Part shown: piece by piece, positions 7,189 to 54,354 of the stretch
Layout: each line of letters opens with the position of its first letter
Position numbering within the stretch: position 1 is the stretch's first letter
Program-made: the position numbers and the translations under genes
Notes under the pieces: model-generated
Told to the model about the DNA's origin: nothing
Database searches by the model: none
What the model saw: the letters and a program-made list of their open reading frames with translations, nothing else
Assembly: GCA_001821435.1 (NCBI GenBank)
Contig: MHLP01000037.1
Location: 1-60,102, forward strand
Source: Candidatus Lloydbacteria bacterium RIFCSPLOWO2_01_FULL_50_20
Lineage (GTDB): Bacteria > Patescibacteriota > Minisyncoccia > Phycocordibacterales > UBA6899
Length of the DNA stretch: 60,102 bases
Direction of reading: 5' to 3'

Positions 7189-8448
7189 ATGTTCAAAAAA
7201 AGTATATTCGTTTCCGTGCTTGCGTTACTTTTTGTTTCAGGAACGTCCGTCGCCGTTGTGTATGCGAATGCTCATGACAAGGAGGATCGCGTCCCCGGAC
7301 AATATATCGTCGTGCTCAAGGATTCGGTCGTTGATTCCGATCTCGTGGGCGACGCGCTCGTCGAGAAGCATAAAGGTCAGAAACTGTTTACCTACAACAA
7401 AGCGGTCAAGGGATTCGCGGCGGTGCTTCCCGATGCTGAGGTTGTCGAACTCAAGAAAGATCCTCGCGTGCTCTTCGTGAGCGAAGACAGAAAAGTGGAG
7501 ATAGTTGCGCGTCCCAGTGACGTGACCGTTATGGCACAATCGCTCCCGACGGGTGTTAATCGCATCAATGCCGAGAACAAACTCAACAAAGGTGCAGGCG
7601 TTCATGTCGCGGTCATTGATACGGGCATAGATCTTAAGCACCAGGATCTCAATGCAAACATCGCAGGAGGAAAGAATTGTTCCACCGGCAGAAGTTATAC
7701 CGACGGCAATGGTCACGGGACGCATGTCGCTGGAACGATCGCTGCGCTCAAGAATGACCGAGGAGTTGTCGGCGTTGCGCCGGAAGCGAAACTCTGGTCT
7801 GTGCGCGTGCTCAATAATTCCGGCTCCGGAACATGGTCTTCCGTCATCTGCGGCGTCGATTTCGTCACCTCGAAGGCTCCTGCAAACGGCGGACCGATCA
7901 CTGTGGCGAACATGAGCTTGGGCGGAGGAGGTGCGAGCGACAACGCTTGCGGAAAGGACAACAATGACGCATTGCATTATGCCATCTGCCGTTCGCGCGA
8001 TGCGGGCGTGACCTATGTCGTTGCGGCGGGGAATGAAGGAGTTGATACCGCGCTGTCTGTTCCGGCGGCATACGATGATGCAGTTATCACGGTTTCCGCG
8101 CTTGCCGATTCGGACGGAGTGGCGGGAGGAGCCGGAAGTGCGACTTCGTACGGTGCCGACGATACGTTCGCTTCATTCAGCAATTTTGGAAGCGCAGTGG
8201 ATATTGCGGCTCCTGGCGTGAAGATCTACTCGACATGGAAGGGCGGCGGTTATGCGACGCTGAACGGCACAAGCATGGCGACGCCGCATGTTGCGGGAGC
8301 TGCTGCGCTCTATATTGCGGCACATCCCGGAGCGACATGGACAGCCGTGCGCGACGCACTTGTTGCAGCCGGAGAGGCGCTTGGCGACGGACACACCGAC
8401 CCGTCGGGACTTCATCCTGAAGTTCTCGTTCGCGCTGATACGCTCTAA
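7189..8448 (+). CDS. Subtilisin-like serine protease (S8) with I9 propeptide and signal peptide
   Basis: Catalytic triad motifs VAVIDTGID, HGTHVAGT and GTSMATPHVAG. N-terminal hydrophobic signal. Confidence 0.9.
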   Translation: MFKKSIFVSVLALLFVSGTSVAVVYANAHDKEDRVPGQYIVVLKDSVVDSDLVGDALVEKHKGQKLFTYNKAVKGFAAVLPDAEVVELKKDPRVLFVSEDRKVEIVARPSDVTVMAQSLPTGVNRINAENKLNKGAGVHVAVIDTGIDLKHQDLNANIAGGKNCSTGRSYTDGNGHGTHVAGTIAALKNDRGVVGVAPEAKLWSVRVLNNSGSGTWSSVICGVDFVTSKAPANGGPITVANMSLGGGGASDNACGKDNNDALHYAICRSRDAGVTYVVAAGNEGVDTALSVPAAYDDAVITVSALADSDGVAGGAGSATSYGADDTFASFSNFGSAVDIAAPGVKIYSTWKGGGYATLNGTSMATPHVAGAAALYIAAHPGATWTAVRDALVAAGEALGDGHTDPSGLHPEVLVRADTL

Positions 8449-9945: not shown

Positions 9946-11052
9946 ATGAATATCACCAAGTTAGTGCTTACCGGCGGGCCATGTGCGGGGAAAACAACCG
10001 CACTAGAGTTCCTCGCCGACCGATTGCGGGCGAGCGGATATTATCCGCTTATTGTTCACGAGGCTGCGACGGCGGTCCTTTCGACGGGACTGACTTACCT
10101 GGATGCGAACGGTGACTGGTTTCCGTTCCAGCGCGCTGTGATTCAGCAGATCATTTCCAGCGAGGACATACTCGAGCAAACGCTTCGGCGCCTGTCTTAT
10201 GCACGGCCGATACTCATCTGCGATCGCGGGATTATGGACTCGAAAGCGTATATGACCGCTTCACAGTTCCAGAGAGTTATCGAGGCGTGCGGATTGAGGC
10301 ATCCTGCGAAGATCCGCAACGGGCGTTATGATGCGGTGATCCATATGCGGAGCACTGCCATTGGTGCCGAGGAATTCTATTCTTCAAAAACCAATGTGCA
10401 CCGTCGGGAAACTATCGCGGAAGCGACTGTGGCTGACGAACGGACGCTTGCGGTGTGGCTCGGCCATCAACACCTCGCGGTCGTCGGGAATACGTACGGC
10501 GATTTTGCGGGAAAGCTCGAGGCGGTGTGGAAAAGCGCCTGCCGTTTGCTCGGCATACCGAAACCGCGCGAGATCGAGAAGAAGTTTCTCGTCGAGCCGG
10601 TCGATTTCACAGCTCTCGGCATCCCTCATGAAACGGTGGATATCGAACAATATTATCTGGAACTGCCGGATCAAGAGAAGGAGGTGATCGCCCGTATCCG
10701 CTCATGGGGGAAAAATGGTGCGGAAACGCATACCTTCACGCAAAAGCGGACGATCGTACCTGGCGAGGTCGAAGAGATCGAAGAACATATTTCCGAAATG
10801 GTGTTCGCGCAGTATACGAAATATCAGAAGCGGGGAACGATACCTCTTTGTAAGCGCCGTACGTGTTTCGTCTATAATGACCAGTATTTCATGTACGACG
10901 AATTCCTTACCGGCCGGCCGGGGCTCATGCTTCTCGAAATAGAATTGGAAAGTCAGGAGAGCAATGTCACCCTTCCGCCGTTTGTTCGTGTTCGCAAAGA
11001 TGTTACCCTGAAAAGAGAATACTCAAACAGCATGATCGCCGTCTCGGCATGA
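9946..11052 (+). CDS. P-loop ATPase (NadR/AAA_28-like) fused to a CYTH (triphosphate tunnel) domain
   Basis: Walker A LTGGPCAGKTT at the N-terminus. C-terminal half starts with the EIEKKFLV (ExExK) CYTH signature and later has LLEIELES. Confidence 0.75.
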   Translation: MNITKLVLTGGPCAGKTTALEFLADRLRASGYYPLIVHEAATAVLSTGLTYLDANGDWFPFQRAVIQQIISSEDILEQTLRRLSYARPILICDRGIMDSKAYMTASQFQRVIEACGLRHPAKIRNGRYDAVIHMRSTAIGAEEFYSSKTNVHRRETIAEATVADERTLAVWLGHQHLAVVGNTYGDFAGKLEAVWKSACRLLGIPKPREIEKKFLVEPVDFTALGIPHETVDIEQYYLELPDQEKEVIARIRSWGKNGAETHTFTQKRTIVPGEVEEIEEHISEMVFAQYTKYQKRGTIPLCKRRTCFVYNDQYFMYDEFLTGRPGLMLLEIELESQESNVTLPPFVRVRKDVTLKREYSNSMIAVSA

Positions 11053-31462: not shown

Positions 31463-31613
31463 ATTCATTTATCCCGTTAGAAGTCGTGGACATGTCATGT
31501 TAAATATATTTTTACTTAAAACACCGAATATTATAAAGATAAGCCGAGCGGGACAGAGGACATTATCGTCCACGTCTTACTTTTTAGCGATAAAAATAAA
31601 ATTTTATTTTTGA

Positions 31614-32960
31614 ATGAGCGACAAAAGCATTATGGATACTTCTAATGGGATGACAAAAGCATTTTCGTTCACCGCTCATCATACATTGCCTGTCCGCTCG
31701 CACCCGGTGCTTGATGCGTACATTTCAGAACTTATCCCTCGCCTTTCGGGGAATGTTCATAGCGACTATCATTTGCATGAAGAAGCACTCCGGCTCCCGC
31801 TTGATCCGGATATCCTTGCGCAGGTAAAAAAGATGGCTAAACACTTTGCCACCTCACGGTTAAAATATGTCATCGTGATCGGTATCGGAGGATCGAATCT
31901 GGGCACGAAAGCGGTTTACGACGCGCTCAACGGAAGTTATGATCTGGCGCTGCCGCGTCTGCCGAAATTATTGTTCATTGATACGCTGTCCGGGAATACG
32001 ATAGCGGAGCTCAATGATATTCTTGCGCCCGTAGAGCATGCTCAGGATATGCTCATCAATCTTATCAGCAAATCAGGAACGACCGTCGAAAGCATCGCAA
32101 ATTTCGAACTCATATATCAGATGCTGGAAAAACGTTTTCCGAATATCGCGTCGCGTGTCGTGTGCACGACGGACAGAGGTTCGGCGCTTTGGGAGATCGG
32201 CGAACAACGCGGTTTCGGATTACTGCAGATCCCCGCCATCGTGGGGGGGAGATATTCGGTTTTTTCGGCGGTCGGCGTTTTTCCGCTCTTTCTCGCGGGC
32301 GTGGGTATGGAGGAATTTCAAAAAGGCGCAAGTCATATGCTCCAGAGCGCGTTCAGCGAAGACAGAGAAAAAAATTTCGCGCGAAATTCCGCTGAGGAAC
32401 TGTTTGCCGCAATGAACGAAGGGTGCTCGATGCTCAACATCTTTCACTTTAATCCCGAATTGGAATCGCTCGGAAAGTGGGAACGTCAGCTTATCGCGGA
32501 ATCGCTCGGAAAGGAGAAGGATCTTGACGGAAGGGTCGTGCATGCAGGGATCACCCCGATCGTATCTATCGGTTCGACCGATCTTCATTCCATGGCTCAG
32601 CTTTATTTGGGCGGTCCAAAAGATAAATTCACGATGCTCATCCGTGCCGAAGAAAAGACTGGTGAACGGATAACGGCAAAAGGCATATTATCGCCGCTCG
32701 GCGTCGAAATGGCCGGGAAGGGCCCTTCCGAGATCATGGAGGCGATCTATGGCGGTGTCCTTGCCACGTATAAGGAACATGGGCTCCCTTCGCTTGAGGT
32801 GAGGCTTCCGCCCGTTTCTCCTTATGTGCTTGGCGCGTACATGGAGTGGCGCATGGCTGTAGTACTCTACCTCGCAAAGCTCATGAATGTTGATCCGTTC
32901 GACCAGCCGAATGTCGAAGATTATAAGAAGGTTACCAGGGCAATACTCACCAAGAATTGA
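31614..32960 (+). CDS. pgi: Glucose-6-phosphate isomerase
   Basis: VIVIGIGGSNLGTKAV and ISKSGTTVES SIS motifs. 448 aa. Confidence 0.85.
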   Translation: MSDKSIMDTSNGMTKAFSFTAHHTLPVRSHPVLDAYISELIPRLSGNVHSDYHLHEEALRLPLDPDILAQVKKMAKHFATSRLKYVIVIGIGGSNLGTKAVYDALNGSYDLALPRLPKLLFIDTLSGNTIAELNDILAPVEHAQDMLINLISKSGTTVESIANFELIYQMLEKRFPNIASRVVCTTDRGSALWEIGEQRGFGLLQIPAIVGGRYSVFSAVGVFPLFLAGVGMEEFQKGASHMLQSAFSEDREKNFARNSAEELFAAMNEGCSMLNIFHFNPELESLGKWERQLIAESLGKEKDLDGRVVHAGITPIVSIGSTDLHSMAQLYLGGPKDKFTMLIRAEEKTGERITAKGILSPLGVEMAGKGPSEIMEAIYGGVLATYKEHGLPSLEVRLPPVSPYVLGAYMEWRMAVVLYLAKLMNVDPFDQPNVEDYKKVTRAILTKN

Positions 32961-50095: not shown

Positions 50096-50168
50096 GGGCC
50101 CATAGCTCAGTTGGTAGAGCGCTACATTTGCAATGTAGATGTCAGCGGTTCGAATCCGCTTGGGTCCA
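50096..50168 (+). tRNA. tRNA-Ala(UGC), 3' CCA not encoded at this end
   Basis: Cloverleaf by hand: acceptor gggccca/tgggtcc with G3:U70, anticodon arm ctaca-ttTGCaa-tgtag, T arm agcgg-ttcgaat-ccgct. Confidence 0.9.
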
Positions 50169-50340
50169 CAACGAGTCTGCGAGGTGGGGAACCGAGGAGT
50201 GAGCTGCTTCACTCCGGGGCGGATTCGAAAGGGTTTTCATTATCGAGCGACCAATTTTTCTTAGCGGTACTCCGCTTAGAAAAGTGGAAGTGCCCGTAGT
50301 GGTGTCTTCGAGATTGAAAACCACCCGTTGCGGTAGGCAA

Positions 50341-50361
50341 CGAATCCGCTTGGGTCCACCA
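50341..50361 (+). repeat. Second copy of the tRNA-Ala(UGC) 3' end (19-nt perfect direct repeat), here with encoded CCA
   Basis: cgaatccgcttgggtccac at 50151-50169 and again at 50341-50359. The second copy continues as CCA. Confidence 0.85.
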
Positions 50362-52691: not shown

Positions 52692-52913
52692 AACGATTAT
52701 AATTAAATAGTTATAAATTATTAATGTAGTGGACAAGCTAAGGGTTAAATAAATATACAGCTTCGATTAGTGGCGGAAACATATTATCATACACCGTCAC
52801 TATGAAATTTCTCTGAAGCGGAATATTTCTTTGCATATTGGCATATTTTTGCTATATTTCTTGAGTTCTTGAGGAGGGCCCGTAGCTCATCTGGTAGAGC
52901 GCGTCATTTTCAC

Positions 52914-53020
52914 CCTGTTAGACATAGGCCATGCGGGCCTATCGTATAGTGGTAGTACACGGCATTCGCATTGCCGGGACGCCAGTTCGATTCTGGCTAG
53001 GTCCACCAATGTCTAACAGG
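52914..53020. repeat. 107-nt insert bounded by a perfect 12-bp inverted repeat
   Basis: CCTGTTAGACAT (52914-52925) is the reverse complement of ATGTCTAACAGG (53009-53020). Confidence 0.85.
52935..53008 (+). tRNA. tRNA-Ala(CGC) with encoded CCA, nested inside the interrupted tRNA
   Basis: Acceptor gggccta/taggtcc with G3:U70, D arm gtat-agtggta-gtac, anticodon arm cggca-ttCGCat-tgccg, T arm gccag-ttcgatt-ctggc, then ACCA. Confidence 0.85.
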
Positions 53021-53075
53021 GCGGGTTGACGAGGCAAGCGGTTCGAGTCCGCTTGGGTCCACAAAAGACACAAAC

Positions 53076-53096
53076 ATCCCGCCTGCGCGGGATTTT
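53076..53096 (+). terminator. Terminator after the tRNA pair
   Basis: atcccgc-ctgc-gcgggat plus tttt. Confidence 0.65.
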
Positions 53097-53191
53097 GTGC
53101 TTTTGGGGAGGCCGCAGCGATATTTCGCCAGCAGGCGAAATCGCGAGGCGGGGTCGCGAGCACTTATGTTTTTTAGTTAGGCTTTGCGCTA

Positions 53192-53681: not shown

Positions 53682-53757
53682 GGGCCTGTAGCTCATTCGG
53701 TAGAGCGCGTGCATGGCATGCACGAGGCAAGGGGTTCGATCCCCCTCAGGTCCACCA
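53682..53757 (+). tRNA. tRNA-Ala(GGC) with encoded CCA
   Basis: Acceptor gggcctg/caggtcc with G3:U70, anticodon arm cgtgc-atGGCat-gcacg, T arm agggg-ttcgatc-cccct. 76 nt. Confidence 0.9.
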
Positions 53758-54354
53758 AAATTGATTAGCATCAGAATTGCCCAAGCCCGCGCCAGAGGCG
53801 CGGGCTTGGGCTGGCATTTCCGCCAAGTCCCGCCAAGGCATTTTGAATTCCGCCAAAAGCATTCCCGCCGAAAGTCGGCGGTTCGAGCCGATGGAAACAA
53901 GAAAATCTCTCACCCGTGAGGGATTTTCTTGTTTAGGGGGATTTCCAGCTTGGTTGGCTTCAATAATCCAGTTTCGCATGAGTTCGAGCCAATGATTACC
54001 TTTGTGTTCAAAATCGCTCAATTTCTCTTCCAGTGTTCGTTTTTCCGCCGTCAGCGCGTTCTTGCGCTCCAAGTACTCGCCAAGTTCCAGTGCTTCGTTT
54101 AGATACGCGTTTGTGAGGCGAGAGAGACGCGCTGAAACGGCGGAAATACTGTCGCGGAGATTTTGAACGAAAAGGTCTGATGAGTGGCGGACATCGGCGT
54201 TTTCGCTTTCCAATTTCTTGAGATATGCGTCTCGCCACTCATCAGGCAAAGAAACTTTTTTGACCATTTCTTGCACTTGTCGTGTCAATTCTTCTTCCCG
54301 CAAAAAGCGAGTTTGCGAACATTTTTGAGTGCGGCTTTTGAAAGTACTGATCAT
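53746..54354 (-). pseudogene. C-terminal fragment of a large serine recombinase; catalytic N-terminus missing
   Basis: Starts inside the zinc-ribbon/coiled-coil region (KCSQTRFLREEELTRQVQEMV...coiled coil...). No resolvase domain upstream. The 3' end runs into the tRNA-Ala(GGC) 3' end. Confidence 0.55.
53779..53811. terminator. 15-bp perfect GC-rich hairpin 3' of tRNA-Ala(GGC)
   Basis: gcccaagcccgcgcc-aga-ggcgcgggcttgggc. Confidence 0.6.

Follow-up and report, generated by a model that had tools for sequence, protein, structure and literature searches.

Why does a complete tRNA gene lie within the anticodon loop of another tRNA gene? The question is raised by a stretch of 60,102 nucleotides, here called the window, from Candidatus Lloydbacteria bacterium RIFCSPLOWO2_01_FULL_50_20 (GenBank assembly GCA_001821435.1, contig MHLP01000037.1, forward strand), in which a tRNA-Ala(CGC) gene clamped by an inverted repeat interrupts an outer tRNA gene at 52876-53061. 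In the reading that we prefer, and to which we give a probability of roughly 0.65, positions 52913-53021 are a small non-autonomous mobile element. Its 13-bp terminal inverted repeats (TIRs) belong to the family CCCCGTTAGA...TCTAACGGGG, its cargo is a complete tRNA-Ala(CGC), and it sits in the anticodon loop of the native tRNA-Ala(CGC) gene. The element is best read as one resembling miniature inverted-repeat transposable elements (MITEs) that would bring a replacement tRNA and have it transcribed from the promoter of the gene it disrupts. Below, the enclosed gene is called the cargo and the interrupted gene the shell.

Results

Architecture of the nested locus

The inner tRNA-Ala(CGC) gene (52935-53008, + strand like all parts of the locus) has G3:U70, A73 and an encoded 3' CCA, and was found by both ARAGORN and Rfam (RF00005, 60.5 bits). 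It is preceded by a 9-nt leader, AGGCCATGC (52926-52934), at whose 3' end RNase P would cut. Leader and gene are enclosed by a left TIR, CCCTGTTAGACAT (52913-52925; family consensus CCCCGTTAGACAT), and its partner, the right TIR ATGTCTAACAGGG (53009-53021). The element measures 109 nt from TIR to TIR, and the whole insert 113 nt, 74 of them tRNA. Each strand of the window has a single occurrence of the 12-mer CCTGTTAGACAT (at 52914 and 53009), and the repeat is a perfect 13 bp once C52913-G53021 is counted. Relative to the consensus the left TIR carries C4>T, matched by the complementary G>A in the right arm.

The 5' half of the shell (52876-52906) supplies the acceptor strand, the D arm and the 5' strand of the anticodon stem. 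The 3' half (53027-53061) supplies the 3' strand of the anticodon stem, the variable loop, the T arm, the acceptor strand and a discriminator A; CCA is not encoded. All stems pair (acceptor 7/7, D 4/4, anticodon 5/5, T 5/5) and G3:U70 is present. The left flank TTTTCA (52907-52912) fills loop positions 32-37 and recurs across the family, while the right flank CGGGT (53022-53026) is one of the family variants CAAGT, CGAGT and CGGGT. Together the flanks make 6 + 5 = 11 nt, a 7-nt loop plus 4.

A first-pass annotation, made from the sequence alone, had described a complete tRNA-Ala(CGC) nested in an outer tRNA gene whose stems all pair and which has G3:U70. Both points are confirmed, the inner gene by ARAGORN and Rfam and the outer by its pairing. 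The inverted repeat that it gave as a perfect 12 bp does clamp the inner tRNA, and is one base pair longer. It had also proposed the intron mode of ARAGORN. With intron and relaxed-score modes on 52800-53150 the program called the inner gene only, and the outer gene went uncalled with the insert in place. After in-silico deletion of almost any version of the insert, ARAGORN reports a tRNA starting at 52876.

The predicted fold of the 187-nt RNA has the nested shape (-84.9 kcal/mol, z = -4.5), with an uninterrupted 13-bp helix that the flanks extend by about 3 bp. An identical 261-nt region is present in loci L001, L122, L123 and L125 (the NCBI record and three other assemblies, made from different samples), and L124 has all its parts. 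Since five independent assemblies of the same organism agree, the locus is not an assembly artefact, and since 34 further loci share its architecture, the nesting is not due to chance.

Identity of the interrupted gene

In a genome collection scanned for the D arm and the CGTCA/TGACG anticodon stem of the outer gene, 11 uninterrupted genes of Patescibacteria were found. Their loop is TTCGCAT, that of tRNA-Ala(CGC). The outer halves in the window are 93.9% identical to the uninterrupted gene of L108 (30/31 nt of the 5' half, 32/35 nt of the 3' half) and 92.4% identical to that of L056. Identity to the window's own tRNA-Ala(TGC) is 83%, and to the enclosed cargo 70%. Because the halves are about 94% identical to uninterrupted Paceibacterota tRNA-Ala(CGC) genes with the loop TTCGCAT, the outer gene is, on sequence comparison, the genome's native tRNA-Ala(CGC), interrupted, and the cargo carries the identical anticodon.

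The uninterrupted outer gene that the first-pass annotation had suggested looking for in relatives therefore exists, for example in L108 and L056. Its description of the outer gene as a hybrid of an Ala acceptor and a Glu-type UUC loop does not hold, since orthologues that lack the insert are Ala(CGC) genes, and TTTTCA belongs to the flanks of the family.

A family of nested tRNA genes in Patescibacteria

The first TIR-flanked tRNAs beyond the window were met by chance in two Saccharibacteria loci, L057 and L102. L057 holds a tRNA-Ile(GAT) within a tRNA-Ile(GAT) gene, between anticodon nucleotides 35 and 36, and a tRNA-Ala(TGC) within the D loop of a tRNA-Ala(TGC) gene. The latter is bounded by CCCCGTTAGACTTC, which is close to the window repeat. 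L102 has a tRNA-Ile(GAT) at the same D-loop position.

Metagenomes were scanned with a pattern made of the repeat plus GGGCC, which itself fixes much of the TIR and the first five bases of the cargo. The scan returned 35 loci, and 34 of these carry CCCCGTTAGACAT, a 6-12-nt leader, a tRNA-Ala(CGC), 1-9 nt and ATGTCTAACGGGG. All 34 modules lie in the anticodon loop of a tRNA-Ala-like shell, in the orientation of that shell, and most of them share the TTTTCA / CRRGT flanks with the window. Leaders are 6-12 nt in all family members and usually start with AGG or GGG. A delete-and-rescan screen produced many false hits at adjacent tRNA genes; those kept were the window/L001 type and L057.

A gapless alignment of 18 intact shells has 98.7% standard pairs, compensatory changes at 14/21 pairs and an invariant G3:U70. 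Shells are truncated or decayed in 7/27 distinct loci, and the cargo is intact in all. In L144 and L132 hardly any shell remains. The tRNA-in-tRNA arrangement spans many Patescibacteria lineages and at least four tRNA species (Ala-CGC, Ala-TGC, Ile-GAT and Pro-CGG). Cargo and target always share identity and orientation.

Two side observations concern L057. Its outer tRNA-Ala(TGC) (7520-7606) is interrupted once more, by about 29 nt inserted between positions 35 and 36 of the anticodon (TTTG, tccccctgcgggagatctctcgaagggaga, CAA), and a stray tRNA 5' half lies upstream of the nest (7335-7390).

Junctions between element and shell

Two junction types were distinguished. In type A (the window and most loci) the order is stem-TTTTCA, TIR ... 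TIR, then CAAG, CGAG or CGGG followed by T and the stem. The variant L139 keeps TTCGCA on its left side, which is native loop positions 32-37. Type B reads stem-NNCG, TIR ... TIR, TGAA-CAT-stem, and in the variant L145 a deletion would regenerate TTCGCAT exactly. In all nested cases the loop nucleotides on either side of the repeats sum to the native loop plus 4 (6+5 in type A, 4+7 in type B, 4+7 in the Ile case and 6+7 in the D loop). Deleting TIR...TIR together with the next 4 nt leaves a 7-nt loop in 24/24 intact shells. After such a deletion ARAGORN identifies type B genes as Ala(CGC), and those of type A come out as 'Glu(UUC)' or 'Lys(UUU)'.

The 4-mer TTCA beside the left repeat and its complement TGAA beside the right repeat are also found at the D-loop insertions and at copies outside tRNA genes (e.g. 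TTCA in L169). TTCA and TGAA thus go with the element and do not derive from a Glu anticodon. The window copy is flanked by TTCA and CGGG, with no direct repeat, though its flank lengths add up to the loop plus 4.

Evidence for movement at the DNA level

The same repeats also bound segments of 29-263 nt without a tRNA, at non-tRNA sites. Perfect 4-bp direct repeats flank 8 of about 15 of these cargo-less copies (TAAA twice, TCAA, CGTG, TATA, TGAG, CTCA and TCTG), where the chance of each match is 1/256. Such target duplications indicate DNA transposition. Two cargo-less copies lie in-frame inside long ORFs. A scan of viral contigs returned cargo-less copies only and no cargo-bearing copy.

Cargoes and shells also differ in their histories. 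Cargoes resemble one another more closely (mean pairwise identity 87.5%) than shells do (76.4%), and cargo distances show no correlation with shell distances (Spearman 0.08, p = 0.3). The window cargo is 89% identical to the metagenome cargoes, against 64-70% to the window's other tRNA-Ala genes. Both junction types are found within the same shell families. Taken together, the target duplications at cargo-less copies, the loop-plus-4 rule, the uncorrelated distances and the mixed junction types argue that the cassette is mobile with respect to the genes in which it sits. Its copies are dispersed over many contigs, and 109 nt is too short to encode a transposase.

The idea that each cargo was copied from its own shell was rejected, since identity to the own shell (0.765) hardly differs from that to other shells (0.761). 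The window itself has a degenerate cargo-less copy at 31471-31653, ATCCCGTTAGAAGT ... ACTTCTAATGGGAT, whose arms are 13/14 complementary and about 150 nt apart.

Layered nests

L137 contains a triple tRNA-Ala(CGC) nest and a triple tRNA-Pro(CGG) nest, the latter with a repeat, CCCCGTTAGAAAC, related to the family. An extra shell or repeat pair lies outside the first shell in L141, L153, L130/L160, L143, L135 and L147. These outer layers often belong to other repeat families (CCCCGCTTATAAACTT, CCCGCTAGATTTCTGG). Decay is greatest in the outermost shells, and the shells of L163 and L147/L161 themselves have the sequence type of a cargo. Such layering is what serial invasion of whichever copy currently functions would leave behind.

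The triple nests of L137 lie on a 2.5-kb contig at about 960-1215 and 2066-2380 (nested tRNAs on the + strand, the reverse complement of the stored locus). That contig also has two more repeat-bounded segments without a tRNA, one inside the other.

Genomic surroundings

A promoter-like site, TTTGCA-17 nt-TATATT with TG before the second hexamer (52830-52858, +), lies about 18 nt upstream of the outer gene and is the only one available to the inner tRNA. A terminator-like hairpin followed by a T run (53076-53093, +) lies just past the outer gene. With the sole promoter-like and terminator-like sites flanking the outer gene, the inner tRNA must be transcribed within the outer unit. The statement in the first-pass annotation that the only obvious promoter is upstream of the outer gene is thus borne out.

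Three tRNA-Ala genes lie inside 3.7 kb: TGC at 50096, the nested unit, and GGC at 53682. Upstream of the outer gene, 86 nt match the corresponding region of tRNA-Ala(TGC) with 76% identity. ORFs of the window include UvrA, UvrC, D-Ala-D-Ala ligase and an L,D-transpeptidase. The neighbouring MazG protein has its closest relatives in Patescibacteria (Paceibacterota, Colwellbacteria, Azambacteria and others).

Recurrent neighbours of nests are a CCA-adding enzyme, tRNA-Pro(CGG), a MazG-like protein and large serine recombinases; a recurrent nuclease was not found in this survey of nested loci. tRNA-Pro(CGG) is a frequent neighbour of nested and uninterrupted tRNA-Ala(CGC) genes alike. The CCA-adding enzyme gene (PolyA_pol + HD) and tRNA-Pro(CGG) recur 2-3 kb upstream of the nest in L130, L131, L133, L137, L152, L160, L162 and L163, which looks like conserved synteny of the native locus.

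Several further observations were made around tRNA-Ala genes. The last 19 nt of the window's tRNA-Ala(TGC), CGAATCCGCTTGGGTCCAC (50151-50169), are directly repeated 192 nt downstream at 50343-50361, and CA, completing CCA, follows the second copy alone. The spacer (50170-50342) contains an inverted piece of the same T arm (GGGGCGGATTCGAAAG). This direct repeat resembles the att-type scar that an integrated element would leave. On the - strand at 53746-54354, an ORF of 202 aa without a Pfam hit overlaps the 3' end of tRNA-Ala(GGC) with its last codons. In BLASTP comparisons it groups with the C-terminal portion of those large serine recombinases that adjoin nested tRNA-Ala genes in L138/L156 and L152, and it is probably what is left of an element that integrated at tRNA-Ala(GGC).

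Large serine recombinase genes beside nested tRNAs are flanked by 100-nt inverted repeats in L152 (8811-8910 / 10318-10417, 100% complementary) and by 158-nt inverted repeats in L138 (562-719 / 2218-2375, 94% complementary). Both genes are full-length, and the ORF in L152 ends within the acceptor strand of the outer tRNA. Recombinase and long inverted repeats may together make up a module that inverts or integrates.

The closest relative with a different arrangement, L128 (MazG 83% identical), has a stand-alone tRNA-Ala(CGC) at 2028-2120. This gene is followed by a long hairpin that takes in its own 3' end, and beyond the hairpin is an inverted partial copy of the T arm and acceptor, interrupted by a 24-nt hairpin. 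On two viral-bin contigs (L165, 5845-5919; L168, 6196-6270) ARAGORN reports a tRNA with a four-base anticodon (taaa), equivalent to an 8-nt loop, beside a tRNA-Leu(taa).

Discussion

A proposed mobile element carrying a replacement tRNA

If the insert is a mobile element, its arrival would abolish the resident tRNA as a decoder. The promoter-less cargo, presumed to be the functional Ala(CGC) gene, would depend on the resident promoter for its transcription. Its tRNA would be released by RNase P and 3' trimming and would take over decoding of GCG codons. The shell halves would then be by-products, decaying or deleted over time. In a streamlined genome with single-copy tRNA genes, viable insertions would be limited to a cognate, co-oriented tRNA gene. 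The cognate rule would be explained by selection for viable insertions, provided that the element prefers the loops of tRNA genes.

Several points weigh against this account. The selection filter needs this putative preference for tRNA loops, and a cargo-bearing copy at a non-tRNA site was not seen. An autonomous partner was not found either: among about 170 loci there was no CCCCG-type repeat pair of 0.5-4 kb enclosing a transposase, and all that the search turned up was long inverted repeats on either side of serine-recombinase genes. The two 4-mers that flank a nested copy always differ from each other, and TTCA, TGAA and CAAG recur at unrelated targets, for which a simple target-duplication model does not account. 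Carry-over during transposition is one possible source of these non-duplicate flanks; selection that extends the helix or disables the shell loop is another. Both the conservation of the TIR and the exclusive Ala(CGC) cargo in the metagenome sample are partly due to the design of the search pattern. Finally, the first shell is perfectly paired in 20/27 loci, so that a mobile element requires either very recent insertions or selection on the shell.

That last point also speaks for the shell being a selected RNA scaffold. The outer fold and the long stalk (anticodon stem, flanks and 13-bp helix) would be kept to express, process or stabilise the inner tRNA, or else the paired shell halves left after RNase P cleavage would be an alanine-accepting tRNA-like RNA in two pieces. 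The well-paired shells keep G3:U70, the C>T and G>A changes in the window TIR are compensatory with a T.G intermediate in L146, the flanks lengthen the predicted helix by about 3 pairs, and promoter and terminator are those of the shell. However, 7/27 shells are truncated with the cargo unaffected, L144 and L132 are nearly shell-less, outermost shells decay, and the covariation could be inherited from the genes as they were before insertion. We consider the scaffold unlikely, and it would be compatible with a mobile origin. The first-pass annotation had likewise offered a co-transcription and processing device. Co-transcription holds as a consequence, given the promoter- and terminator-like sites flanking the outer gene, but leaves the origin of the nest unexplained. 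A less probable history is a single ancient insertion or duplication at the Ala(CGC) locus that descended vertically without mobility, with later cassette exchange by homologous recombination between the repeats. Common descent would predict the derived flanks TTTTCA / CRRGT shared by type A loci, and in L134, L147 and L161 cargo and shell share T-arm features (score 0.86-0.90), which suggests gene conversion. Against this, the window shell is 94% identical to an uninterrupted gene of another lineage and only about 70% to other shells, junction types are incongruent with shell families, successive shells carry different TIR families, and cargo-less copies have fresh target duplications.

We think it very unlikely that the insert is a true tRNA intron or part of a split tRNA, whose removal from the RNA, with an endonuclease and a ligase acting at the helix base, would let both tRNAs mature. 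That one rule, removal of TIR...TIR plus the next 4 nt, gives a canonical 7-nt loop in every intact shell and restores CGC in type B does speak for excision. So does a resemblance to archaeal non-canonical introns, both in where the inserts lie (37/38, 35/36 and the D loop) and in the presence of more than one insert in a single gene (L057). Yet the predicted helix is continuous, without 3-nt bulges 4 bp apart, and manual threading of a bulge-helix-bulge (BHB) motif on type A and type B junctions gave none. Rfam returned no hit to a group I intron, another ribozyme or tmRNA, either at the gathering threshold or at E <= 5, and weak tmRNA_permuted matches reflect only the T arm, acceptor and CCA. 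Excision from the window, where the resulting loop would be UUUUCAU, and from 16 other type A loci would yield an Ala-identity tRNA with a UUC or UUU anticodon, and most type B products would lack U33. The cargo-less relatives, moreover, act as DNA insertions with target duplications, some in ORFs. No Pfam domain of a splicing endonuclease or ligase was found in ORFs near the locus within the 60-kb window. A split or permuted gene was rejected because the halves are collinear in one transcription unit. The intron or split-tRNA reading of the first-pass annotation is thus not upheld. Its suggestion of a TIR-bounded mini-element whose tRNA cargo killed a tRNA paralog fares better. The repeat family with its 4-bp target duplications, the decoupled inner and outer histories and the uninterrupted orthologues agree with it, and copies of the TIR element with and without a tRNA, which it had proposed to seek, were found. 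The target is, however, the native gene and not a spare paralog. An assembly chimera or a chance resemblance has next to no probability: the general risk of metagenome-assembled genomes is all that favours it, against the same sequence in five assemblies, 34 homologous loci and the fold z-score of -4.5.

Should the mobile-cassette reading be true, it describes a new route to colonising an essential gene, by bringing a spare copy, and a way in which the tRNA genes of streamlined genomes can be replaced horizontally. It would also account for tRNA-gene fragments that confuse annotation, as standard predictors silently skip the shells. A broader and more tentative proposal, which we hold with less than even confidence, is that Patescibacteria host selfish 'tRNA replacement cassettes'. 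Each would be bounded by inverted repeats, carry one complete tRNA, insert specifically into a loop of the cognate gene and take over its promoter and function, and successive invasions would build onion-like nests. Cargo and target would then have to be coupled, for instance by homology- or structure-guided transposition, and tRNA genes would turn over rapidly as they are replaced horizontally.

Comparison with known systems

Integrative elements target tRNA genes and bring a replacement for the part that they displace. An archaeal example is known from Caldiarchaeum (PMC3293823). Like them, the element described here disrupts a tRNA gene, preserves viability (on our reading) by supplying tRNA sequence, and is found where recombinase genes adjoin tRNA-Ala genes. 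Integrative elements, however, are kilobases long, encode an integrase, are bounded by att direct repeats and replace only the 3' part of the gene, whereas here 109 nt with inverted repeats carry an entire tRNA and both old halves are left. Direct repeats of the attL/attR type were not found around the insert.

Rickettsia palindromic elements (RPEs; PMC1779305) and MITEs are likewise short, non-coding, bounded by inverted repeats and multicopy, and lie in intergenic regions and in-frame in protein genes. Short target duplications are shared with the cargo-less copies. Unlike RPEs and MITEs, one sub-family here carries a whole tRNA gene, and does so only in the loops of cognate tRNA genes, co-oriented and in layers.

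Archaeal BHB, multi-intron, split and permuted tRNA genes (PMC4390854, PMC4033280, PMC4090602) share inserts at 37/38 and at non-canonical or D-loop positions, several inserts per gene and a helix formed by the flanks. The window locus departs from them in having no BHB, a bacterial host, an unusable anticodon on excision, an insert that is itself a tRNA, and relatives that resemble DNA transposons. Nested cassettes offer a bacterial counterpart in the debate on the origin of disrupted archaeal tRNA genes. Bacterial group I introns (PMC3984707; 10.1101/2020.01.27.920355) also interrupt the tRNA anticodon loop. They have a P3-P9 core and typically exceed 200 nt, whereas the insert here is about 110 nt, almost all of it tRNA, with no ribozyme core and no Rfam hit to one.

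A further parallel lies in a structural RNA gene with a helix-bounded insert whose processing would fragment the host RNA. In bacterial 23S rRNA, intervening sequences are cut out by RNase III and the pieces are not re-ligated. Fragmented rRNA still works, but a tRNA cut in its anticodon loop cannot decode, and here the insert, not the host, would be the functional product. Our literature search found no description of a bacterial tRNA nested in a tRNA, in agreement with the first-pass annotation, nor of this repeat family. We rate the arrangement as a TIR-bounded non-autonomous element with an unprecedented relationship between cargo and target.

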